DNA from: a virus
Strand: one strand, 5' to 3'
Virus record (IMG/VR): IMGVR_UViG_3300038410_000117
Location: 1-38,163 of that record
DNA length: 38,163 bases
This document shows, piece by piece, positions 1,824-38,163 of the stretch (position 1 is the stretch's first letter; each line of letters begins with the position of its first letter). Both the position numbers and the translations under genes were made by a program. The notes below the pieces were generated by a model. The model did no database searches, was not told the DNA's origin, and saw nothing but the letters and a program-made list of their open reading frames with translations.

Positions 1824-1900
1824 TGGTGGCCCCGGTGGGACTCGAACCCACAGCCTCCGGGTTAGAACTCCGGTGCCGGTTCCAGTCCGGCTACGGGGCC
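1824..1900 (-). tRNA. tRNA-Arg (anticodon UCU), CCA encoded
   Basis: Hand-folded reverse complement: GGCCCCG-TA-GCCG...CGGC-A-CCGGA-GTTCTAA-CCCGG-AGGCT-GTGGG-TTCGAGT-CCCAC-CGGGGCC-A-CCA. There is an A31-C39 mismatch in the anticodon stem. Confidence 0.8.
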
Positions 1901-2084
1901 GAACGCTGAAGGACTTCCTAGCCGCAGCCACCACGCCGAGCGCGGGCCGGACGACGCGCCCGCCCCGAATCCTTCGATCTGGGTCACGTTGACGGTGGGT
2001 TTGGAGCAGCTTTCCCCTTTCGACGTTGCGCTTTGAGCTAAGAATCGTTCAGCCCTGAGCGCTGATCTTTCATTCGCACGATAC

Positions 2085-2154
2085 GCAGATGGGCTCCCAC
2101 TACCCTATCCCCCCGTCAAGTGGGGGGACCAGGATTCGAACCTGGGCAATCTGC
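2085..2154 (-). ncRNA. Circularly permuted tRNA-like element: 3' half (2154-2121), 6-nt linker (2120-2115), 5' half (2114-2085), with termini in the anticodon loop
   Basis: Minus strand reads GCAGA-TTGC-CCAGG-TTCGAAT-CCTGG-TCCCCCC-A / CTTGAC / GGGGGGA-TA-GGGT-AGTGGGA-GCCC-A-TCTGC. Acceptor pairs 7/7, T stem 5/5, anticodon stem 5/5, D stem 4 bp including one G-U. Confidence 0.6.
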
Positions 2155-2253
2155 ATGTATGAGCATGGCTTTGAAGGCCAGCCCGACCACAGTGTGGTCG
2201 GTGCTCAGAAAGATCGCCTGTTGACTCGCTTCGCTGCCGAAAGTCCTCCGTTT

Positions 2254-2903
2254 TCAGATTTCGATGGTCGTCGTCGCGTTGATCAGGCTCAGTTTGCCGT
2301 CGAGTTCGCCCAAGACGGCTTCCATCTGCTCGATCTTCGCGATCAGTTCGCTCTCCTTCAGGTGGACGACGACCTCGCCCTTCTCGCCACTCGGCGAATC
2401 GGTTACCTTGAGGCCCTTTTTGAACATCTCCTCGCGATTCCGAACGATCGAGGAGTGAAGCCGTTGAAGATGGAGCCGTTCCGGCTCCGAAACCTCACGG
2501 CGCCAGTTCAGCCACTCGGCCACGGTGCGCGTCGTTCCCGCTACGGTGGCGGCTTCTTCCCCGATCGTTCTCGTCGCACCCGGAATCTTCGGCATGATCG
2601 CGGGAGTCGTCGTCTTCCTGATCGGCTAAGCCCGATCTCAGCGAGAAATCGTGCCGCGGCCGTCACAAGATTCTGTTGCTGGATGGCCGTTCGGATCGAG
2701 ACGATCCGCTTCTGGAGGTCGTCGATCGCTTGCGTCTCCTTCCGGATGAACTCTTCGGACCCGCCTTCGCTCTCCATCGGGTCCTTGATCCGTGAGTCGC
2801 GCATCAGATTCGTCCCGATCGACTCGCGCTTCTTCTGGAGACGCGCATTGATCGTCTTGATCTCAGCGAGCGCTTCGGTGATCGTTAGCTTCGTTGAAGC
2901 CAT
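2254..2903 (-). pseudogene. Coiled-coil protein gene (restorable to about 181 aa) split into two out-of-frame ORFs by a composite insertion
   Basis: ORF 2541-2903 (MASTKLTITEALAEIKTINARLQKK...) and ORF 2254-2595 (...TVAEWLNWRRE...ELDGKLSLINATTTIEI). Deleting 104 nt (for example 2554-2657) gives a continuous ...IQQQNLVTAAATVAGTTRTVAEWL... . The layout reminds me of DIP1984-family proteins; this is unverified. Confidence 0.7.
2552..2657. repeat. Composite insertion of three exact inverted copies of other loci: 2552-2591 = rc(22965-23004), 2589-2628 = rc(31396-31435), 2630-2657 = rc(5482-5509)
   Basis: Direct base-by-base comparison. The first two segments share a 3-nt overlap (tcg). One unmatched nucleotide (2629) lies between the second and third. 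Confidence 0.9.
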
Positions 2904-4027: not shown

Positions 4028-4473
4028 CCCCGCGACTTCGGAGCGCCGCTCAAGTCGCCGAAGGGGCGAACGCGAACGTCCACAAGATGGCTCGGGAAAT
4101 GGAGAAGGAGAAAGCGCGTGGATGGACGGTTTCGGCGGCACCGCACGCGGCGGCGACCTTCACCGGCCAGAATCTTTTCGCGTTGACGCAGGCAGCCGGT
4201 AAAGCGGTATCCTGACGCCAGCGCCGAACACGCGCGACCGGGCCTCGTCTTTCGATTTTGCTCATGGACGGGCACGATCATCGTCCCTACTCGGTCTCGA
4301 TTCGAACGGGCGCGAGCGGACGCGCGGCTGACGAGGCTCAAAGCTGAGAACGCGAAGAGCGGGCTTCGCGATCATGAGGTCGTGTCACTGAGGGCACGGC
4401 TTCTCGGAGGGCGGTCCCGCAAGAAGCCGCCCTCCACCAACTCGATCTCTCAACGAGAGAGGAGAAGATTTCT

Positions 4474-5145: not shown

Positions 5146-5733
5146 ATGGAGTCACACCCCGTTGAGATTGTTCGAATTCCCGAAGGCGAGTCGGGAGCGC
5201 TCGAAGGGCGGCTCACGGAACCGGTCCTCGAATCGATCGCGTCCCTCTGGTCGCTCCCACGATCCGCCCGAAGAGCCGCCGGGGTCGAGCCCCTCGACGA
5301 CGCCGGAGTGGCCTTCCTGGCCGAGCGCTTGGGAGTCACCCGAGGATTTGTCCGAAAACAGCAGCGAAACCCCAAGGTCCTCGCCGCCATCCGAAAGCGA
5401 TGCATCGAAGCCGTCACCTTGATGATGCCCGACGTGATCGAGGCGCAGCTTAGACTGGCCGTCGTCATGCATGACACGAAAGCGGCACGATTTCTCGCTG
5501 AGATCGGGCAATTCTTGAAGACGGGGATGTCGGTTCAGCAGACCGTCGGGGTCAATGTCGCGCTTCAGTCCGGATCGGCCAAGGATGGCCATATTTCCGA
5601 GGACTCCGAGAACCTCGCCTGGCTGACGCGCATGCGTCGGTCCGGGGAACTCGATCGAATCTGCGCCTCGGTGATCGTCGCGGAAGACGATGGACCTGAA
5701 CGAATCGAATCCGCAAGCCAGCCAACTCCGTAG
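5146..5733 (+). CDS. terS: Putative small terminase subunit
   Basis: Sits immediately upstream of and overlapping terL. HTH-like LAERLGVTRGFVRKQQRNPKV. GAGG lies 5 nt before the ATG at 5146. Confidence 0.5.
   Translation: MESHPVEIVRIPEGESGALEGRLTEPVLESIASLWSLPRSARRAAGVEPLDDAGVAFLAERLGVTRGFVRKQQRNPKVLAAIRKRCIEAVTLMMPDVIEAQLRLAVVMHDTKAARFLAEIGQFLKTGMSVQQTVGVNVALQSGSAKDGHISEDSENLAWLTRMRRSGELDRICASVIVAEDDGPERIESASQPTP
5482..5509. repeat. Source copy (28 nt) of insertion segment 2630-2657
   Basis: gcggcacgatttctcgctgagatcgggc is in frame inside terS (AARFLAEIG). Confidence 0.9.
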
Positions 5734-7213
5734 AATCCAAGAAGCGCAAGAGCGCCGCCCCTGGCGCTACTACGCGCCCGTTCCAGTCCTTCGCGACGGA
5801 TTCCACAAATCGACGGCGAAGATTCGTCTTCTGACTGGACCGAACGGAGGCGGAAAGACATGGGCTGGAGCGTACGAACTGCTCTCCTATGCGACTGGAT
5901 ACAACCACATCCGGGATGAGCACTATCCGACGCCCAATGTCTGCTGGGCCGTCGCACTCGATCACCAGAACCTCGGCCCGATCATGCGCCGTACGGTGAT
6001 CTCGATGGCGCCGAAAGGCTCACACTTCGTCGCGAAGGAGATGAAGCTGATCCTTCCGAAGCCTTGGGGCAGCGAAATCTACTTCAAGGCGTGCGAGTCA
6101 GGCGTAGAGAAGTTCATGGCCGAGCGATGTCTGGCAATCTGGTTCGACGAGGAGTGGCCGGGAGAGGAGGGCCTTCGAATCTTCAAGGAGTCGCTCCGCC
6201 GCACGAAACCGGGCTGGCCCCTTCGCCTCTACATGACGCTGACTCCCGTCTTCGGGTACACCTGGACGTACGACTACCTTTGGCGCGAGGACTCGCCGCG
6301 TCGTTTCCGTGGCGTCGAACGCTTCAACTTCAACCTCTACGACTGCGCCCAAGCGAAGGGCGGGTTCCTCACGCAGGAGGAAATCGAAGATCGGGAACAG
6401 AACCTCGATCCGTACGAGCGACAGGCTCGGCTCATGGGCGAATACACGCTCGTCGGTGGAACGCCCGCCTTCGATCCGTCTCATCTGATGCGCGCACTCG
6501 ATCGTTGCGTCGCCGGAAAGCGCTATCGAATCAAGACAGCCGGACTCCGTGACGGCCTAGCGGCACCACTTCTGGAGGAAGACCCCGATGGACCGCTCCA
6601 CATCCTCGTCCGACCAGTCCGAGGCCGCCAGTACATCCTCGGAGGGGACCCGGCAATGGGAATCCGGCAGGACTCCAGCGTCGCCTCTGTCTGGGACCGA
6701 GAACTCCCCGTTGAAGTTGCCTATTTCTCTGGAAACGACGTGGACCCCGCCCAGTTCGCCCGAGATGTCGTGGCTCCCCTTGCGACTTTCTACAACAACG
6801 CGCTGGCGGCGATTGAGGCGAATTCTCAGGCCGGAGGCGCAGTCCTAGCCAATCTCCAGGGCGTGTACGGCCATCTCTATATGCGCCAAGATTTTGAGGC
6901 TAGGAAACGGGAGTTCAGCAGCCGCTACGGGTTCTGGACGAGCGACCACAATCGCGGCCTTCTCTTCTCGACCTTGAAGGCATCGCTTCCGATGGAGCAG
7001 TTCACCCCGAGCGAAGGCCTGATCCGCCAGATGATGAACATGATCGTGACGGAAAAGGACAGGATCGATCACATGCGCGGGCGGCATGATGATCATGTTC
7101 TCGCGGCAGCCATCGCCCTGACCGTGAATCGGCTCAATCCGACGCCGCGCTATGAGCCCTGGGGCTTCTACCGGGAGACCTACAAGGGCGAGAACGCCTG
7201 GATGGGAAATTGA
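5690..7213 (+). CDS. terL: Large terminase subunit
   Basis: Walker A LTGPNGGGKTW, Walker B-like LAIWFDEEW, C-terminal nuclease-type HMRGRHDDHVLAAAIAL. 507 aa. Confidence 0.9.
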   Translation: MDLNESNPQASQLRRIQEAQERRPWRYYAPVPVLRDGFHKSTAKIRLLTGPNGGGKTWAGAYELLSYATGYNHIRDEHYPTPNVCWAVALDHQNLGPIMRRTVISMAPKGSHFVAKEMKLILPKPWGSEIYFKACESGVEKFMAERCLAIWFDEEWPGEEGLRIFKESLRRTKPGWPLRLYMTLTPVFGYTWTYDYLWREDSPRRFRGVERFNFNLYDCAQAKGGFLTQEEIEDREQNLDPYERQARLMGEYTLVGGTPAFDPSHLMRALDRCVAGKRYRIKTAGLRDGLAAPLLEEDPDGPLHILVRPVRGRQYILGGDPAMGIRQDSSVASVWDRELPVEVAYFSGNDVDPAQFARDVVAPLATFYNNALAAIEANSQAGGAVLANLQGVYGHLYMRQDFEARKREFSSRYGFWTSDHNRGLLFSTLKASLPMEQFTPSEGLIRQMMNMIVTEKDRIDHMRGRHDDHVLAAAIALTVNRLNPTPRYEPWGFYRETYKGENAWMGN

Positions 7214-7309: not shown

Positions 7310-9211
7310 ATGGCCGATCCCCGGACGTATACTGACGGCACGACCGAGCTAGCGGCCTTCAAGTACGGGAAGGCCCTTCTCGATTCCGCACGGTCTCAAG
7401 CGCGCCACTTCACCGCCACAGCCTATGAGGACCTCAGATTCGCCCTGGGGGAGACCCAGTGGCCGACGCCTTCGAGCTATCGTGCCTGGTTCGCGGAACG
7501 CTGGAAGAACCGAAGCGTCCGGAACTACACCTTCGCGACGATCCACTACAAGGTCGCGATGTGTACGCAGGCAGAGCCCTCCATCCGCTGCGTCGCGCTC
7601 GATGAACTCTCCACAGCAGAAGAGCGCGCTTCGATCGAAGCAGCCGTCACGCACGAACTCGATCGGCTCCGATGGCGCGACTACATCCACGACGCCATGT
7701 TCGACGGCGCAGTCATGGGGAAGGGAATCATCCACGTCTACCCCATGCGTGACGATTTCACCGGGATGTACTACCTGAATCTCGAATCCGTCGATCCGAG
7801 CCGCTACTACCCCGATCCCGCGAAGTCGAAGCTGAAGGAAGCCCGGTATCTCGTCTACGAACCGGAACTCGACATGGCGATGATCCGGAAGATGTTCCCG
7901 GACACCTGGCAAACGGTGAAGCCGAAGGACAAGACGATTGGTCGGCTCGGTGACATTCAGTACTCCCGCACCGATGACGAGATCATCTACGGACCGGCCA
8001 CTGGGGAGATCACGGTCACCAAGGACGGGTATCTTGCCGAGCGGAAGGCGAACGTGGCCTTCATCTGGATCAAGGACCCGACCGTCGTTGATGACTTGAA
8101 GACGGTCCTCGACCAGCCTCCGACTCCAGGGTTCAAGTGCGCCGACTGCGGAAATGACTTCACGGCGGACGGAGCCGCATTCAGTCCTCCGACGGAACGA
8201 ACCATGCCGCGCTGTCCGGAATGCATGAGCGCGAATCTCACTCCGATGATGACCCCGCCCCTCTTCACGGTTCTGAAGGACCGGGCGCGGCTCTACCCCT
8301 TCGGGCGACTGATCGCGCTCACAGATAGCGGACTCCTCTATGACGGGCCGAGCGAATACGAACTGTCTGGCGTCTTTCCGTTCGTCGAGTACAACCACTA
8401 CCGGATTCCCCGGCGATACTGGGGCTACGGCGACGTAGCGCTCTGCAAGAGCCCGCAGCAAGCGTTGAACAAGCACATCTCCCAAGCGATCGACTACATG
8501 CGCCTAGCCGGGAACTCCCCGATGGAAGTCCCCGCCGAGGTCCAGGCGTATCGCCATCTGGGAACGATCCCTGGGGACACGATCCCGGTTCCGGCCGCAT
8601 TCATGGGAATGGCGCGCTACCTCTCGCCTGGCGGGTACAACGCGATGTTCCATCAAGTTCTAGACCAGGCTCTTCTCATGGATTTCCAGCGGACGACCGG
8701 CGTCACGGACGTGGCAAGCGGGATCGCGCCGAACGCCCCGACTTCCGGGATTGAAGTCCAGTCGCGCCAGGCGGCAGCGAACACGCGACTCGGAGATCAC
8801 ATGCGCGAACTCAACAGCACGAGTTCCGATCTCGCGAGCATCACCTACGAAATGATGCATCAGTTCTACACGGAGCCCAGGGCGTTCTCGGCTCCGACTC
8901 CCAATGGCGAACTCTATCCGATCGCGATGGAAGTCGCGCAGCTCCCCGTCAACGTTTCCGTCGTCGTCACGGCTTCGCTCGACAAGCAGCAGAAAGACAA
9001 CCTCTTCGGGCAGAACCTCATGGCCGCCGTCCAATCCGGACAGATTCCGTTCATGCCGGACCTCATGCTCCCGATGATGGGCGGAGATCGAGAGACGTCG
9101 CGCGAGATCGCCGATCGCGCACAGCAGGCCCAACAGCAACTTCAGGCGGCGAGCGCGCAGCAAGCGCTTCTGCCCGGCCCTCAACCCGCAGCGGCCCCGG
9201 AGGCAGGATGA
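7310..9211 (+). CDS. Portal protein (633 aa) with an inserted CxxC...CxxC zinc ribbon
   Basis: Position directly after terL, size, Q/A-rich acidic C-terminus. Zn ribbon is FKCADCGNDF...PRCPECMS. Confidence 0.7.
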   Translation: MADPRTYTDGTTELAAFKYGKALLDSARSQARHFTATAYEDLRFALGETQWPTPSSYRAWFAERWKNRSVRNYTFATIHYKVAMCTQAEPSIRCVALDELSTAEERASIEAAVTHELDRLRWRDYIHDAMFDGAVMGKGIIHVYPMRDDFTGMYYLNLESVDPSRYYPDPAKSKLKEARYLVYEPELDMAMIRKMFPDTWQTVKPKDKTIGRLGDIQYSRTDDEIIYGPATGEITVTKDGYLAERKANVAFIWIKDPTVVDDLKTVLDQPPTPGFKCADCGNDFTADGAAFSPPTERTMPRCPECMSANLTPMMTPPLFTVLKDRARLYPFGRLIALTDSGLLYDGPSEYELSGVFPFVEYNHYRIPRRYWGYGDVALCKSPQQALNKHISQAIDYMRLAGNSPMEVPAEVQAYRHLGTIPGDTIPVPAAFMGMARYLSPGGYNAMFHQVLDQALLMDFQRTTGVTDVASGIAPNAPTSGIEVQSRQAAANTRLGDHMRELNSTSSDLASITYEMMHQFYTEPRAFSAPTPNGELYPIAMEVAQLPVNVSVVVTASLDKQQKDNLFGQNLMAAVQSGQIPFMPDLMLPMMGGDRETSREIADRAQQAQQQLQAASAQQALLPGPQPAAAPEAG

Positions 9212-22345: not shown

Positions 22346-25300
22346 GTGGCCGATCCCAACGACTTTCTTCTAGGCCGCCAAAGCCGACCTAGCGTCCCGG
22401 CCCTCGCGCCGGACGCGAACGCGTTCCTGAGCGGTGAAGCAAGCCCCCCGCCGAGCCGCCAGGACGCGAATTCCTTCCTTTCCGGGCAATCTGCCGCACC
22501 TGCGCCTCCGAGCTTCCTAGAGGCCGCCGGACGCGGCCTGATGGGCACCCTGGGTGAGATCGGAAGCCGATACGAGGCTTCGAAGGCGAACCTGATTTCG
22601 GCGATCATTCGATCTGGAGTCAGCCCGGTGGGTTTCGTTCCCGAGGTTCCAGCGCCGCAGATGGTTCAGGCTGGTAAAGAATTGGCCGGTGCGATCCCGG
22701 CCGGGCTGGACAAAGAGGTCACAGCCGTTCCTGGTCCCGCTGGCGGTCCCATTCGTCCTGAGACAGCGACGGCCGATCTGCTTCGGTCCTATGGATTGAA
22801 TCCGCTGGTTCCTGAGACCTGGCAGGTCGCGGCGGACGCTATCGCGAAGGCTACGGGTCTGAGAATTCCGATCGGCTCGCTTGCCCGGTTCATCGCCGGT
22901 CCGGAGGGAGCGAGTTTGGCCCTCGACCTTCCGGTGGGAGAACTGGCGAGCGGAATCGGAGCAGCGAAGATTCCGGGTGCGACGAGAACGATCGGGGAAG
23001 AAGCTAAGATTCTAGGTTCTATGATCGGCGAACCAATCCGAGCGACGAAGATTGGAAAGGCGATCGAAGCCGTCTCCCAAGGTGGAGGCGTGCCGGCCAA
23101 GATCGAGGGCGTGGCGGCGCCGAACGCTCGGGAGACGCTTCGCGGCATGCTCATGGATGCCTACGGTGAGAAGGCCGTCAGGGATGCCGCGCTCCAGGAG
23201 GCGATCCGACCGATCGAACAGACGATCAAGGACACCGCGAAGGCTCGTGGGATCAGTGAAGTCGCCCAGGCGAAACGGCTTCGCGATGCCGTCGAGGAAC
23301 TGCCGCGCCTCAAGGGAGCAGCGACCGAGGGCTTCACACAGGCCGAACGAGACGCAGTCGCCGCGATGACGAAGATCAGTCGTGCGACACCGAGAGAACG
23401 ACTCGCTGCTGGCCTCCGTCCGTTCGAACTAGGGGGACACGTTCCCCCGCTCGCCAAGAACGTCGAAGCCGCTGTCGCGAAGTTCGAAGCCGAAAAGGCG
23501 GGCCTTCAGACGCTCAAGGAGATCGGTCCGCGCGGCGCGAAACTCAAGAGCCAGATCGCGAAGGCGAAAGGCGAGGGCGTTGCAGCCAGGGAAGAACTTG
23601 CACGGTTGGCCCGCGTCGCGTCTACCAAAGCGACAGCCAAAGCTGAACTCGGCGGTGTTGACCTTCTCCAGGAGTTGGGTTCGGGCCGAGCCGCAACGCG
23701 GCTTCAAACGAATCGCGCGAATCGTGCTCTCGCAGAGGCGGAGCAGGCCCTATCCGAAGCCAAGATTCCGAAGGGAGAGCCGCACGCTCCGATCGTCGCC
23801 GAAAGAGCAAAAGCCGCGCGTGACGCGATCCAGTTCGCGGACGAGAAAATCAAGGGACTGTCGGCCCTCGCGAAGAGGGACCGATCCGTCGCCAGGCAGA
23901 TCGAGCGCGTTCGCGTCGCCAAAGGCGAAGCGGTTCAGGCGATCAAAGCGTTCGAGGCGAAGAGCGGAATTCGAGTCCCGAGACGCGGAGAGGCCGAGGT
24001 CGCGGCTGGACTGCGTCCCCCCGAGAATGCTCCGAAGATCGAACTCAAGGCTGCCGCTCGTGTAGCTCGCAACTATCGTCGCCGGATGATCGCTCATACG
24101 CCTCGCGAGTCCACCGAAGCGCTCCGCGCCTTGAGCACGAACAAGTATGTGCGTGAACGGCCCTACGGAGGTGGAGGGATTCCGAGGGGCCTCACGACCA
24201 AGATCGGCAAGCGTCGTGTCTCGCTCCCCGTCACAGCCACGAAGGAGATCGAACGTCGGCTGGCGCCGCATCTCGGCAAGGAGGAAGCGTTCGCTCCCGT
24301 TACCGAAGGTTATCTGAAGTCGGGATACCGAACGAATCGGGCCATCGCGCACATCGATTTGGCGAACAACGTGGCTCGCACGTTCGGCCGCGCGACAGAA
24401 GAGGCGCCGAAGGACTGGGTCGAACTCGGGAGTCTCTCAGGACTGAAGGCCGGAGCAATGAAAGAGACGATCGCGCGGCTTAACACGATCAAAGTCCACC
24501 CTCGCATTTTCGACACGCTCGAAGCTGTCTCGAAGAACCTAGAACCTCAGAACTACGGGAAGATTCAGGCCTTCGCGAACTCAGTCGTGCGGATCGTCAA
24601 GCCATTGTACACCGTCGTCAATCCGGGCTTCGTCGTTCGAAATCAAATCTGGAACGTCATGGTGACAGCCAGCCGTGGGAACCGCGACCTGACCGCCTGG
24701 ACGAGAGCCGCTGACGTCCTGTCGAAGACAGCGCCGGACGAGACCCTGGCTGGATTCAAAGTCACGAAGGCTACGTTCCTGAAGCAAGCGATCGAGGACT
24801 CGATCGTGACTGAGGCTGGCGTGACCTCGGGCGAGTTCGGCACGCGCGTTGGCAGACGGATCGGCGAGACACAGGCGCACTGGCTTCGGACGTATCCGGA
24901 GTGGATGAGTCGCGCTAACTCGGTCGGTGAGAACACCGCCCGGCTCTCTCACTACATCTGGTCGCTGGAGCGCGGGATGACGCGAGCCCAGGCGCGGCTC
25001 GAAGTCGCACGAACGCTTTTCAACTACTCGCGCGACGCCTTCACTGTTCTTGAGAATCAGGCTCGCCAGTACATCCTTTTCTACTCGTGGTACCGGCGAA
25101 TCTATCCGCTCACGCTTCGCACCGCGCTGGAGCGGCCTGGCGAGATCGCGAAGTTCGCGACAGCGGTCAATAACATCAACGCCATGCAGGGCGTGGCGCC
25201 GATCGAAGCCGCCTACCTCGCGCCCTCCTACTTCGATGCTGTCGGAATCGTTCTTCCGCCGAGCGATACGCAGCCGGAGGGTACCAGGCGAGTGATCCTG

Positions 25301-31364: not shown

Positions 31365-31466
31365 TCATCGATTCCGACTTCTCCGACCGAATGCGTAGCC
31401 GATCAGGAAGACGACGACTCCCGCGATCATGCCGAGCGGAAACGCTTCGATCGGCGTCGGATTCAT
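31365..31466 (-). CDS. Possible 33-aa membrane peptide (below the track length cutoff)
   Basis: ATGA overlap with the upstream stop. MNPTPIEAFPLGMIAGVVVFLIGYAFGRRSRNR. Contains the source of insertion segment 2589-2628. Confidence 0.4.
   Translation of the reverse strand: MNPTPIEAFPLGMIAGVVVFLIGYAFGRRSRNR
31396..31435. repeat. Source copy (40 nt) of insertion segment 2589-2628
   Basis: tagccgatcaggaagacgacgactcccgcgatcatgccga compared directly. Confidence 0.9.
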
Positions 31467-32440: not shown

Positions 32441-32605
32441 TTAGCTCCGTTTCGCTTCGCGCCTGAGCGCTTGGATGTACCGAATCACGAGCGCGCATTT
32501 GCGCTCTAGCTTCGGGCCGAGACGCTTGTAGCGTGTCGCGACTAGTTCCCTGTCGAGCGAGCGGATCGCGCGGAGCAATCCGCTCGCGGTTTCAGTTCTG
32601 ATCAT
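32441..32605 (-). CDS. Hypothetical basic protein (54 aa)
   Basis: ATGA overlap with the amidotransferase-like gene's stop (MIRTETASGLL...). Confidence 0.45.
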   Translation of the reverse strand: MIRTETASGLLRAIRSLDRELVATRYKRLGPKLERKCALVIRYIQALRREAKRS

Positions 32606-33600
32606 TCGCTCCCCTCTCCGGCGCGGTGGCGCCATGATGGCCAGTTATTCTCCTTTACGTGCTGGCGCCATGTCTCAATGTCGCCTAGGTGTCGCTTCCA
32701 TGCTTCGCGCTCCTCTGGCGTCAACGTATCATCGGCTAGGACTCCGGTATCATCCGGCGCCGTCCCGTTGATCGGTAGAATCGACTTGATATGACCGTCC
32801 TTATCGAATTCTGTGCGCATAGACGGGCCGCGTTCGTACTTACTGCCCAAGTATTCCGACAGACCGTAGCCGTAGCCTCCAGTAAAACTGCGGTACGTAT
32901 AGCCGTCGATAGGTTTGCTACGCTGCTTTAGCTTGTGCGGCATACACTCGAATAGAATGTTTTCAGGAACGGATGACACCTTGACCCAATGACGTAGCCA
33001 AACGTAGCTTATCGCATTGCGCAGAATAGTCTCGGTCGACGCGAATATAGTTATTTTGCCTCCTCCCTCAAGCGGAATCCGAGTGTATACGATGGGATTC
33101 CCAGAACGCATGAGATACAGGCGTCCGCTATGAACCGCAGCAATCGCGCTCGGGCCATCCGTATCCTGCAAGAACTTCGGCAGCATGTTTGGGCCGTACG
33201 ATTCGACGAATGACGCGACTAGCTCCGAATCGACGCCGCTAGGCTTCTTAATGCTCCACGTCTTCCGAAGGGACTTCATGTCGAAAAAGAATCCGTTATG
33301 AACGCTCACGGTGTCGCCGCGTTTGAACGGTTGAGCCTGTGCATCGTCCCTGCCTCCGCACGTAGGCTGGCGCGTATGTCCTAGCGCGATGCTAGGATTA
33401 TGCTCGAACGCGTTAAAGAATTCCGATGTCTCGGTAAGGCTCATCGGACGAATCGCCCGTTTGACCACTATGCCATTGACGTAAACTCCTGCACTTTGAG
33501 ATCCGCGCTCCTCCCCATAGAACAGTAACCCTTCCATCAGGCGCCTAGCCGCTTGTCGCTCGATTGGTACAGACGAAATGAAGCCTGAGATGCTACACAT
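32602..33600 (-). CDS. Class II (Ntn, N-terminal Cys) glutamine amidotransferase-like protein with a C-terminal extension of about 110 aa
   Basis: MCSISGF start, GHTRQPTCGG....AQPF, VHNGFFFDMKSL are the hallmark GATase-2 motifs. Confidence 0.8.
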   Translation of the reverse strand: MCSISGFISSVPIERQAARRLMEGLLFYGEERGSQSAGVYVNGIVVKRAIRPMSLTETSEFFNAFEHNPSIALGHTRQPTCGGRDDAQAQPFKRGDTVSVHNGFFFDMKSLRKTWSIKKPSGVDSELVASFVESYGPNMLPKFLQDTDGPSAIAAVHSGRLYLMRSGNPIVYTRIPLEGGGKITIFASTETILRNAISYVWLRHWVKVSSVPENILFECMPHKLKQRSKPIDGYTYRSFTGGYGYGLSEYLGSKYERGPSMRTEFDKDGHIKSILPINGTAPDDTGVLADDTLTPEEREAWKRHLGDIETWRQHVKENNWPSWRHRAGEGSE

Positions 33601-34918
33601 ATAGCGTTTTCCTTTCGCTTTTGGGCCGCTTGTGCATATTCAAGTAGCCCGTGCCGTGTCGCTTCGCGCGTTTCACGAAGTACTTTCGCAGAGACATTGG
33701 CGCCTTGACTTGCTGGAATAGGAATATCAAGCGCTCTCTGTCTGTCATTTGATACACCACCGCTCGCCGTTCTGACGTGCATTGGATCGCCTGAAACGTC
33801 TCGAAAAACGAAAGCATGAGCCTTGCCCATGCTGCCACCTTGACGGTTGAAACTGTACCCTGATGCAACCGAATTTCGTACGTTTTGAACTTGTGGAACG
33901 CTGCGACGTTCAACGATCGGTACCGGTCGTTTTGCCAATCGGCTAGATTGCTGATCCCGTCCACGCTACGGGCATAGTTGTTGTCGCGTCTGCGTGGCGT
34001 TACTACTCCGAAAAAGACTCGCTCAAGCGCTTGCCACCACCGTGCTATGTTCTCGCGCTGCCTGGCACTCATGTCGGAAACGTCAACGTGCATATGGAAT
34101 CCACATGAATCATTTGCATACGCATTAGCTCGCCTCAAACTGTAGCAAACCTTTCGGATCATGGCCAAGGCGGCATCTCCACGAGCCGGGAAGCTAGAAA
34201 ACTCGTAAGGCGTTCCCCTGTTTCCGCGAATACTCATATCATCGTGAATTCTGCCGTATCGCGCCACATCGGGGCACCTGTCTGCCAAAAACTCAAGTTC
34301 TATTCCGAACGGCCGCTTGATTGGAATGATATCGTATGTTGTGGAATCAACCGACGGCGGAGTAGACCGAGCTGCTTCCGCATAGCATGATTCACAATAC
34401 CTCCGGTTGGAAAGTTCCAGAGTACTGTCAGGATCGAAGTAACTGCCGCAGCGATAACATTCGGCGAATTGCTCATGGAAGCATGATTCGCAGTAGATTC
34501 TACCACATTGCGCGGCTTCGTGGAACGTCTCATGCGGATTAATTCGCATGTCTGGCGCGTGGACATCGTGACCGCATGCAACGCATGGCAATACTTGCGA
34601 ATCGTAGCAATCGGTGCATATCCTGACGTTAAGCAAGGATGGGCTAGGGCCATAGTAGGGGCGCGACTGCATTCGATGCCAAAGCGCTGAGCCCAGAATT
34701 AGCCGCCAAGTCGTGTCACGTAGTCCACCGCAGCACGGGCAAGCGGCTTGATGTCTCGGTCCACAAGAAGCGCATAGGGTATACACACCACCGCCATCAT
34801 CGCTTGAGATACGATAGCGTGCTAAACGTTCCTGCGGAAAAGAATGGTCGCAGGCATCACATCGAACATGACTTGGAGGCACCGTATAGGTGTACGTTGT
34901 GAAATTGGGCACGATCAA
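33593..34918 (-). CDS. GS-like amidoligase (Amidoligase_2 type) fused to an N-terminal multi-zinc-ribbon region of about 190 aa
   Basis: FGIELEF, DDMSIRG...YEFSS, CGFHMHVD, RYRSLN, YEIRLHQGT match the amidoligase motif order. The N-terminus has at least 8 CxxC pairs. Confidence 0.75.
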   Translation of the reverse strand: MIVPNFTTYTYTVPPSHVRCDACDHSFPQERLARYRISSDDGGGVYTLCASCGPRHQAACPCCGGLRDTTWRLILGSALWHRMQSRPYYGPSPSLLNVRICTDCYDSQVLPCVACGHDVHAPDMRINPHETFHEAAQCGRIYCESCFHEQFAECYRCGSYFDPDSTLELSNRRYCESCYAEAARSTPPSVDSTTYDIIPIKRPFGIELEFLADRCPDVARYGRIHDDMSIRGNRGTPYEFSSFPARGDAALAMIRKVCYSLRRANAYANDSCGFHMHVDVSDMSARQRENIARWWQALERVFFGVVTPRRRDNNYARSVDGISNLADWQNDRYRSLNVAAFHKFKTYEIRLHQGTVSTVKVAAWARLMLSFFETFQAIQCTSERRAVVYQMTDRERLIFLFQQVKAPMSLRKYFVKRAKRHGTGYLNMHKRPKSERKTLYV

Positions 34919-38029: not shown

Positions 38030-38163
38030 CGGGATGACCGGACCAGATCAGCGTCTCGTCAATCGACTTGATCTCCCGGTACCGAGGCCCTCCAAGGAAG
38101 TATCGGAGGCCATCCCAACCGCACTTGATGAGCAGACGCCCGTCCGGCCACTTCATGTACGGT
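38016..38163 (-). CDS. 3' portion of the junction-spanning gene (same gene as 1-252), shown again because of the terminal repeat
   Basis: Stop TAA at 38018-38016. 38037-38163 duplicates 1-127. Confidence 0.5.
   Translation of the reverse strand, partial: PYMKWPDGRLLIKCGWDGLRYFLGGPRYREIKSIDETLIWSGHPDGNY
38037..38163. repeat. Second copy of the 127-bp terminal repeat
   Basis: Identical to 1-127. Confidence 0.95.

Follow-up and report, generated by a model that had tools for sequence, protein, structure and literature searches.

The stretch of DNA analyzed in this study (the window, 38,163 bp) encodes on its minus strand, from position 2154 to position 2085, all the helices of a class-I tRNA in a permuted order, and the reading that we favor, with moderate confidence, is that this element is a functional mimic of tRNA, derived from tRNA and akin to the YrlA (Y RNA-like) RNAs. 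The parts of YrlA are arranged in exactly this order, and these RNAs have been compared to tRNAs that are circularly permuted and whose acceptor stem is closed (Chen et al. 2014, PMC4201824). The layout as such is already known, and what our study adds is modest: a divergent copy with class-I geometry in a small and complete phage genome that lacks Ro60. The initial annotation of this DNA had stated that no permuted tRNA genes are known from bacteria or phages; this statement has to be abandoned in view of the part order of YrlA and of the dozens of further elements that we found in genomes, metagenomes, and phages.

Genomic setting and anatomy of the permuted element

The window begins and ends with an exact direct repeat of 127 bp (1-127 is identical to 38037-38163). 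Based on this repeat and on the length of the contig on record, 38,163 bp, the window is a complete phage genome, circularly closed or terminally redundant, of about 38.0 kb. Among its products are a large terminase and a P22-like portal, together with an SLT lysozyme, an exonuclease-like protein, an HNH endonuclease, and HTH regulators; a pair of adjoining genes for GATase_6 (glutamine amidotransferase) and Amidoligase_2 (32602-34918, minus strand) represents a phage auxiliary module. Protein family scans of the complete genome detected no RNA ligase, splicing endonuclease, nucleotidyltransferase, or integrase. The ordinary tRNAs of the window number six or five (ARAGORN and Rfam), and tandem tRNAs are present elsewhere in the genome.

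The element is located between the stop codon of the ORF at 2254-2595 and tRNA-Arg(UCU) at 1824-1900 (minus strand, identified by ARAGORN/Rfam), which lies 184 nt downstream; both neighbors are encoded on the same strand as the element, and about 350 nt of non-coding DNA are available around it. No sigma-70-type promoter or intrinsic terminator was predicted on the element's strand, and the element and tRNA-Arg(UCU) probably share one transcript. The 184-nt spacer between them has no significant structure (z = -0.67); it contains GUCGAAAG, and a second Y-like RNA was considered there and rejected because the fold was not significant. On the other side, the segment 2552-2657 consists of three abutting reverse-complement copies, taken from 22965-23004 (100%), 31393-31435 (97.7%), and 5482-5509 (100%), and this mosaic is either a set of real templated insertions or an assembly chimera. 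An independent Logan contig of the same phage ends at about position 2600, short of the element. The ORFs at 2541-2999 and 2254-2595 (minus strand) match the N-terminal and C-terminal parts of phrog_1491, a tail fibre protein, which suggests that a frameshift or the mosaic insertion may have divided a single gene in two.

A direct reading of the minus strand, from 2154 downwards, gives the following order. The 3' strand of the anticodon stem, GCAGA (2150-2154), comes first, followed by a 4-nt variable loop, UUGC (2146-2149), in which C2146 corresponds to position 48, the Levitt partner of G15, and by the T arm, CCAGG-UUCGAAU-CCUGG (2129-2145), which aligns to the T-arm positions of the covariance model R1 described below. 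The acceptor 3' strand, UCCCCCC (2128-2122), and the discriminator A2121 (2121-2128 as a whole) follow without an encoded CCA; a 6-nt loop, CUUGAC (2115-2120), then closes the acceptor stem and leads to the acceptor 5' strand, GGGGGGA (2108-2114), which is complementary to the 3' strand at 7/7 positions. The remaining parts are U8 and A9 (2107-2106), the D arm GGGU-AGUGGGA-GCCC (2105-2091), A26 (2090; 2090-2107 with the preceding parts), and the anticodon-stem 5' strand, UCUGC (2085-2089), which forms 5/5 pairs with GCAGA in both the sequence and the MFE fold. All four helices are perfect, and their sole U.G pair, in the D stem, would read as A.C on the opposite strand, which identifies the minus strand as the functional one. 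The tertiary positions of the tRNA L-shape are all kept (U8, A14, G18G19, G15:C48, G53:C61, T54-psi55-C56, A58, and R26). The anatomy, the permuted order, and the missing anticodon loop had all been described in the initial annotation, and the direct reading bears them out.

As it stands, the element receives no ARAGORN or Rfam call (RF00005 included) and has no contiguous cloverleaf with an anticodon loop. When 2114-2085, a 7-nt loop, and 2154-2121 are rejoined in silico, a rejoining that had been proposed beforehand, ARAGORN calls a 74-nt tRNA with every loop tried. The canonical T loop and the 21 required pairs give a chance estimate of about 1e-13 per position, and the element cannot have originated by chance.

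In the MFE fold the anticodon stem is predicted to continue into the flanks, where GUAU (2081-2084) pairs with AUAC (2157-2160) across a 2-nt bulge in the 5' strand (A2156 and U2155). The domain of the Salmonella Typhimurium YrlA has been solved (Wang et al. 2018, bioRxiv 10.1101/312249), and the predicted bulge is similar to the dinucleotide kink of its stem. The AUAC and the bulged AU (2155-2160) belong to a CAUACAU that resembles, in a by-eye sequence comparison, the conserved (C)UACAU motif found 5' of the YrlA T arm. Upstream of this region, both flanking hairpins that had been reported for this DNA were recovered. The first, GC-UGGC-CUUCAAA-GCCA-(U)GC (2163-2182, minus strand), has by fold and sequence comparison a 7-nt loop of the anticodon type (CU-NNN-AA), as in authentic YrlA "V" hairpins, but it lies 17 nt farther from the T arm; the second, CGACCAC-ACU-GUGGUCG (2184-2200, minus strand), has 7 bp in the sequence and the MFE fold. 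These two 5' hairpins explain the z of -2.8 obtained when both flanks are shuffled. A tRNA-Sec-like Rfam match covering 2127-2199 was rejected, given that it reaches 25.7 bits against a gathering score of 47 and that an acceptor 5' strand is missing upstream; the match arises artefactually from the anticodon-like hairpin (2163-2182) together with the T arm.

Farther out, the 3' flank (2045-2080, minus strand) can pair in the MFE fold with 2201-2240 (GUGC/GCAC, GAAAGAUC/GAUCUUUC, CGCU/AGCG, and GCUG/CAGC), no better than shuffled sequences do. With the core fixed, this enclosing flank-to-flank pairing gives a non-significant z of -1.5, and a long enclosing stem as a sign of a Y-RNA stem was dropped for this reason. 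The YrlA 5' module (GGUGGCGUAG...UUACUUC...GAGGUC) is not recognizable at the element: the best local placement of its profile falls on UCGGCAGCGAAGC (2228-2240, minus strand), a candidate motif of the Ro60-binding type, with a non-significant 0.2 bits. We compared UCGGCAGCGAAGC with GCUGCGAAGG and with AGCGCAG of Ro-linked copies. The 5' flank contains AGCGAAG at 2235-2229; it is important to note that the strict motif GNCGAAN0-1G, which in YrlA lies near the 5' end and is a putative Ro60 contact, is found genome-wide at a rate of about 1.5 per kb per strand and is missing from several Ro-linked copies. Both the strict motif, being too frequent, and the 5'-module profile, with its 0.2 bits, are uninformative here.

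The continuation of the stem bears on whether the element could be a genuine circularly permuted tRNA gene, whose ends would be cut and ligated into an anticodon loop, with the linker removed, to give a Val-like tRNA with a UAC anticodon, as the initial annotation had guessed. The permuted tRNA genes of Cyanidioschyzon merolae and some archaea have a bulge-helix-bulge, undergo circularization by splicing endonuclease and ligase, and produce decoding tRNAs (review PMC3978253). As in our element, their 3' half lies upstream of their 5' half with a short acceptor linker; in addition, all tRNA elements are present in ours, ARAGORN accepts the rejoined form, and the upstream seven nucleotides, CAUACAU, contain UAC. 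Nevertheless, we consider a decoding tRNA highly improbable: no bulge-helix-bulge appears in the fold, where the flanks extend the helix with one 2-nt bulge, CAUACAU would place A, not U, at position 33, and neither a splicing endonuclease nor an RNA ligase is detectable in the complete phage genome. To our knowledge, bacteria have no tRNA splicing endonuclease. The same architecture is moreover known, from YrlA, not to give a tRNA (Chen et al. 2014, PMC4201824), and the bulge-helix-bulge and ligation route is neither present nor plausible in our case.

The YrlA-like class and its linkage to Ro60

YrlA RNAs consist of the parts T, AS (an acceptor-like stem-loop), and D, with an optional V stem-loop; they have tRNA-type modifications and a covarying Levitt pair, and their occurrence close to Ro60 has been reported for 254 bacteria and 22 phages (Chen et al. 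2014, PMC4201824). Binding by Ro60 and modification by TruB/DusA are further traits of YrlA. The element shares with them a T arm placed 5' of the D arm with a loop-closed acceptor stem in between, the tRNA tertiary contacts including the Levitt pair, an anticodon-stem equivalent built from 5' and 3' strands, a dinucleotide irregularity (predicted in ours) in the 5' strand of the stem, and the similarity of CAUACAU to (C)UACAU. Like YrlAs, which are found in phages and beside tRNA genes, ours is phage-borne and near tRNA-Arg.

In order to describe the class, we scanned two collections. In the viral contigs, where only the T-loop and D-loop signatures and their spacing were fixed, a perfectly self-complementary 7-nt acceptor was present in 9 of the 127 matches, against 0.13 expected, and about 10 were non-tRNA. 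In the metagenome and genome contigs, where a G/C-rich closed acceptor was required (the CCCC-A...GGGG pattern), fully complementary acceptors were found in 91/240 matches, against about 12 expected. After removal of tRNA overlaps and duplicates, 82 distinct elements remained, and 23 of them, ours included, close a perfect 5-bp anticodon stem in the exact tRNA geometry, compared with about 1.2 expected. Across these 23 complete permuted cloverleaves, the helix positions are occupied by 3-6 different pair types; a Levitt pair, G15:C48 or A15:U48, is formed in 21/23, which was not a selection criterion and is reached by 0/100,000 shuffles; U8 is invariant and A14 is kept in 22/23. These pair counts come from the structural parse, as the MAFFT alignment (A2) put sequences with 4-nt and 5-nt V loops in different registers. 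The acceptor loop starts with A-CCA (discriminator plus encoded CCA, as in real bacterial tRNA genes) in 7/23, which is consistent with an origin from tandem tRNAs or with processing to a CCA end.

The linkage of the class to Ro60 was observed directly. Among the 17 elements with at least 4 kb on both flanks, 14 have Ro60 within 4.5 kb, and the three exceptions are all viral contigs; a Ro60 profile identified homologues in 32 of the fetched loci. In an Anaerolineae locus (L283), a TROVE and Ro60-vWA protein is encoded about 600 nt downstream of the element, and in another locus (L335) RtcR is found. Some members of the subtype with a closed anticodon stem, to which our element belongs, are linked to Ro60 (L089, L162, L173, and a second copy in L283).

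We built the model R1 from 13 Ro-linked copies, leaving ours out. In GenBank phages, this model finds full-length copies in the unannotated gaps beside Ro60, several of them in tandem (Xanthomonas phage Usaquen, Caulobacter phage CcrColossus, and Arthrobacter phage Atuin). It ranks our element first in the window, aligning it to its T-AS-D positions 49-107 with 41.9 bits as compared with at most 26 for true tRNAs, a score that is partly circular because the seeds were gathered with the CCCC-A...GGGG acceptor pattern taken from our element. The curated YrlA model RF02553 (gathering score 69) matches the phage loci recovered by R1 and others at 37-73 bits; among the controls it gives 72.7 bits in L322, 50 in L370, 37 in L062, and 31 in L212. 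The matches indicate that the collected class corresponds to YrlA and its relatives. The same model has no match to our element at E <= 10, either on 641 nt or on 206 nt.

Several features set the element apart from canonical YrlA. First, its D stem is GGGU/GCCC (D arm UAGGGUAGUGGGAGCCC) whereas the near-invariant YrlA stem is GCUC/GAGC (D arm UAGCUCAGUGGUAGAGC), the differences being compensatory changes; GCUC/GAGC is present in 12/23 members of the subtype and in nearly all Ro-linked seeds. Second, YrlA has a V hairpin directly before the T arm, where ours has the 4-nt V loop. Third, YrlA is typically located within about 4 kb of Ro60/Rsr (TROVE) and on the same strand, whereas Ro60 is absent from our complete phage genome, in which 12 Ro60 proteins used as tblastn queries, a profile HMM run on the six-frame translation, and Pfam scans all gave no match. 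The acceptor of the element resembles those of its closest analogues, in L212 and L062.

The collected loci show further arrangements. Three or four tandem YrlA-like copies are located just upstream of a Ro60-like gene in CcrColossus (L372, JX100810, 3873-4509) and in Usaquen (L370, MW822536, 4226-4837); one of the CcrColossus copies overlaps an annotated tRNA-Gln (4050-4117), which is probably a mis-annotation. A second wiring, found in L334, L175, L122, L137, L153, L160, L172, L201, and others, has a T arm, a closed acceptor, and a D arm followed directly by a complete anticodon-like hairpin, with a CUUACAAGC-type motif preceding; it represents a tRNA permuted at the variable region and occurs mostly in large tRNA arrays, in some cases near Ro60. 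Some elements without a recognizable Ro60 nearby adjoin a protein of about 570 aa that has a weak DUF2828 match and weakly resembles the vWA part of Ro60 (hhalign probability, 11.5%), as seen in L062 (5422-7140 and 1923-3146), L329 (3428-4456), and L011 (4465-5673); this DUF2828-like protein may be an alternative protein partner. L062 also encodes a Band_7/SPFH protein, and in Bacteroides phage crAss001 (L371, 4392-9299) the genes for the TROVE protein gp96 and the SPFH/Band-7 protein gp91 are separated by a few kb and adjoin tRNAs and an HNH endonuclease. Another viral contig (L056) carries both a closed-acceptor element and a group I intron (8642-8864; RF00028, 101.5 bits).

Other RNAs with tRNA-like parts

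The two-piece tmRNAs of alpha-proteobacteria, beta-proteobacteria, and cyanobacteria are permuted around the acceptor stem, and RNase P and 3' processing convert them into a two-piece tRNA-like domain; tmRNAs also have a tag reading frame and pseudoknots, their D arm is degenerate, and their acceptor stem contains G3:U70. In two-piece tmRNA, the acceptor 5' strand comes after the T arm and the acceptor 3' strand, the same permuted acceptor order as in our element, which leads to the question of whether the element could represent the acceptor and coding pieces of such an RNA, or else the tRNA-like insert of a larger ornate RNA (GOLLD or ROOL). With regard to the latter, tRNAs are known in the linkers of GOLLD RNA, and the literature that we consulted on these linkers mentions tRNAs, not permuted ones (Kretsch et al. 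2025, PMC12286853). In one of our loci (L180), the permuted element (2159-2243) sits in the variable linker of a GOLLD RNA (2055-2576; RF02032, 134.5 bits); it consists of a T arm, a closed acceptor with the same ACUUGAC loop as ours, and a D arm, followed by an anticodon-like hairpin. The CUUGAC loop is identical in the two elements although the L180 contig has a very different G+C content, and the other L180 helices differ from ours by compensatory changes.

We consider an identity with either of these RNAs very unlikely. Our element has G3:C70, not G3:U70, and an intact D arm, with neither a tag frame nor pseudoknots; ARAGORN finds no tmRNA, and no tmRNA, GOLLD, or ROOL family matches the window at E <= 10. 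Its downstream spacer is unstructured, and only about 350 nt of non-coding DNA are at hand. A tmRNA was rejected on the basis of G3:C70, the missing tag frame, and the missing ARAGORN and Rfam matches, and GOLLD and ROOL on the basis of the missing signal. The GOLLD linker inserts are, like our element, phage-borne tRNA-like modules near tRNA genes, but ours has no GOLLD or ROOL core beside it.

A further tRNA-like RNA is b7a-tRNA (Burroughs and Aravind 2016, as cited by Wang et al. 2018), described as a Band-7-associated RNA that strongly resembles authentic tRNA, with a proposed role as an RNA-repair cofactor and a gene context interchangeable with that of YrlA. Ours, in contrast, is permuted, and no homologue of a Band-7 or DUF2828-like protein was found in the complete genome. 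Band-7 genes do occur near the elements of L062 and crAss001 and in a relative of our phage (L363, with a 58% identical terminase), where the Band_7 protein, absent from our phage, is encoded beside a tRNA cluster (5470-6663).

Origin, predicted maturation, and meaning of this copy

Tandem tRNA genes are the published origin model for the YrlA class (Wang et al. 2018 preprint, bioRxiv 10.1101/312249), and the derivation from tandem tRNAs put forward in the initial annotation agrees with this model. The same idea gives rise to a different reading of our copy, which we regard as unlikely: a functionless young remnant, captured or truncated from two identical neighboring tRNA genes and running from the 3' half of the first across a 6-nt spacer into the 5' half of the second. 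It could have come about by template switching, of the sort that may have made the mosaic 400 nt away, and its helices would be perfect only because of its youth. The nearest relatives of the phage (terminases 54-65% identical) have ordinary tRNAs in the equivalent region and no permuted element within the 20 kb fetched, so that the search of related phages for the same arrangement was negative, and nothing indicates selection on this particular copy. The absence of a partner protein in the genome, the missing match to RF02553, and the non-significant flank pairing point in the same direction, as do the nearby patchwork of three reverse-complement copies (2552-2657), the tandem tRNAs elsewhere in the phage, and the tandem-tRNA origin accepted for the class.

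Against a remnant, searches of the phage's own genome, of viral contigs, and of GenBank phages and plasmids revealed no source tRNA; the two breakpoints coincide exactly with the anticodon-stem ends; and the adjacent hairpin resembles YrlA V hairpins. The same full architecture recurs, with covariation, in many unrelated genomes, mostly linked to Ro60, and the CUUGAC loop is shared with L180 in spite of the different G+C content and the compensatory helix changes. The recombination scar that the initial annotation had adopted as its null hypothesis loses weight because the class recurs and covaries, but it retains some for this copy, for which no orthologue was found in the relatives. Close homologues were likewise missing from GenBank phages, plasmids, and viral contigs at the DNA level, from the loci reached via neighboring proteins, and from syntenic relatives. 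An attP-type tRNA 3' fragment was rejected, given that no integrase was found and that the adjacent complementary 5' half would be left unexplained.

If the element is a functional mimic of the YrlA kind, as we favor, it would be a non-coding module that folds into the tRNA L-shape with permuted wiring: a loop would close the acceptor stem, and the "anticodon stem" would lead out to the rest of the transcript with no anticodon loop. It would probably be transcribed leftward, together with the upstream gene and tRNA-Arg. The YrlA of Mycobacterium smegmatis is encoded upstream of rsr and bound by Rsr; its acceptor stem comprises 7 bp, which allows RNase P to cut the RNA in vitro, and in vivo the RNA is cleaved and provided with CCA (Chen et al. 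2014, PMC4201824). Our element has the same stem length, and its processing by RNase P is a prediction made from this analogy. Because it retains a full 7-bp acceptor stem and a discriminator A, host RNase P would probably recognize the acceptor/T-arm minihelix and cut between C2115 and G2114, after which the 3' side would probably be trimmed to A2121 and CCA-tailed, as in M. smegmatis. The predicted product is a two-piece tRNA-shaped particle that has no anticodon and would be unable to decode. This particle would likely engage a host factor that binds tRNAs or Y RNAs, namely Ro60 if the host has it, or otherwise an enzyme that binds the elbow or the acceptor.

We also considered a more specific function, which seems to us improbable: a stand-alone mimic, processed by RNase P and independent of Ro, that would hijack or blunt a host factor, for example by sequestering host Ro60/PNPase or by diverting, as a decoy, defence nucleases that target tRNA or toxins that modify the acceptor. 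If this were true, the "orphan" permuted tRNA mimics of phage tRNA arrays would form a distinct functional class.

Our survey indicates that closed-acceptor permuted tRNA-like elements are common in the tRNA arrays of phages and bacteria. They escape standard tRNA finders, are recognized only weakly by the curated Rfam model, and are easily taken for novel permuted tRNA genes; at least one GenBank record annotates one of them as a tRNA. If the element described here is functional, phages would deploy YrlA-type mimics without a Ro60 of their own, and such RNAs would act on the Ro60 of the host or, independently of Ro, through their tRNA-like elbow or acceptor.
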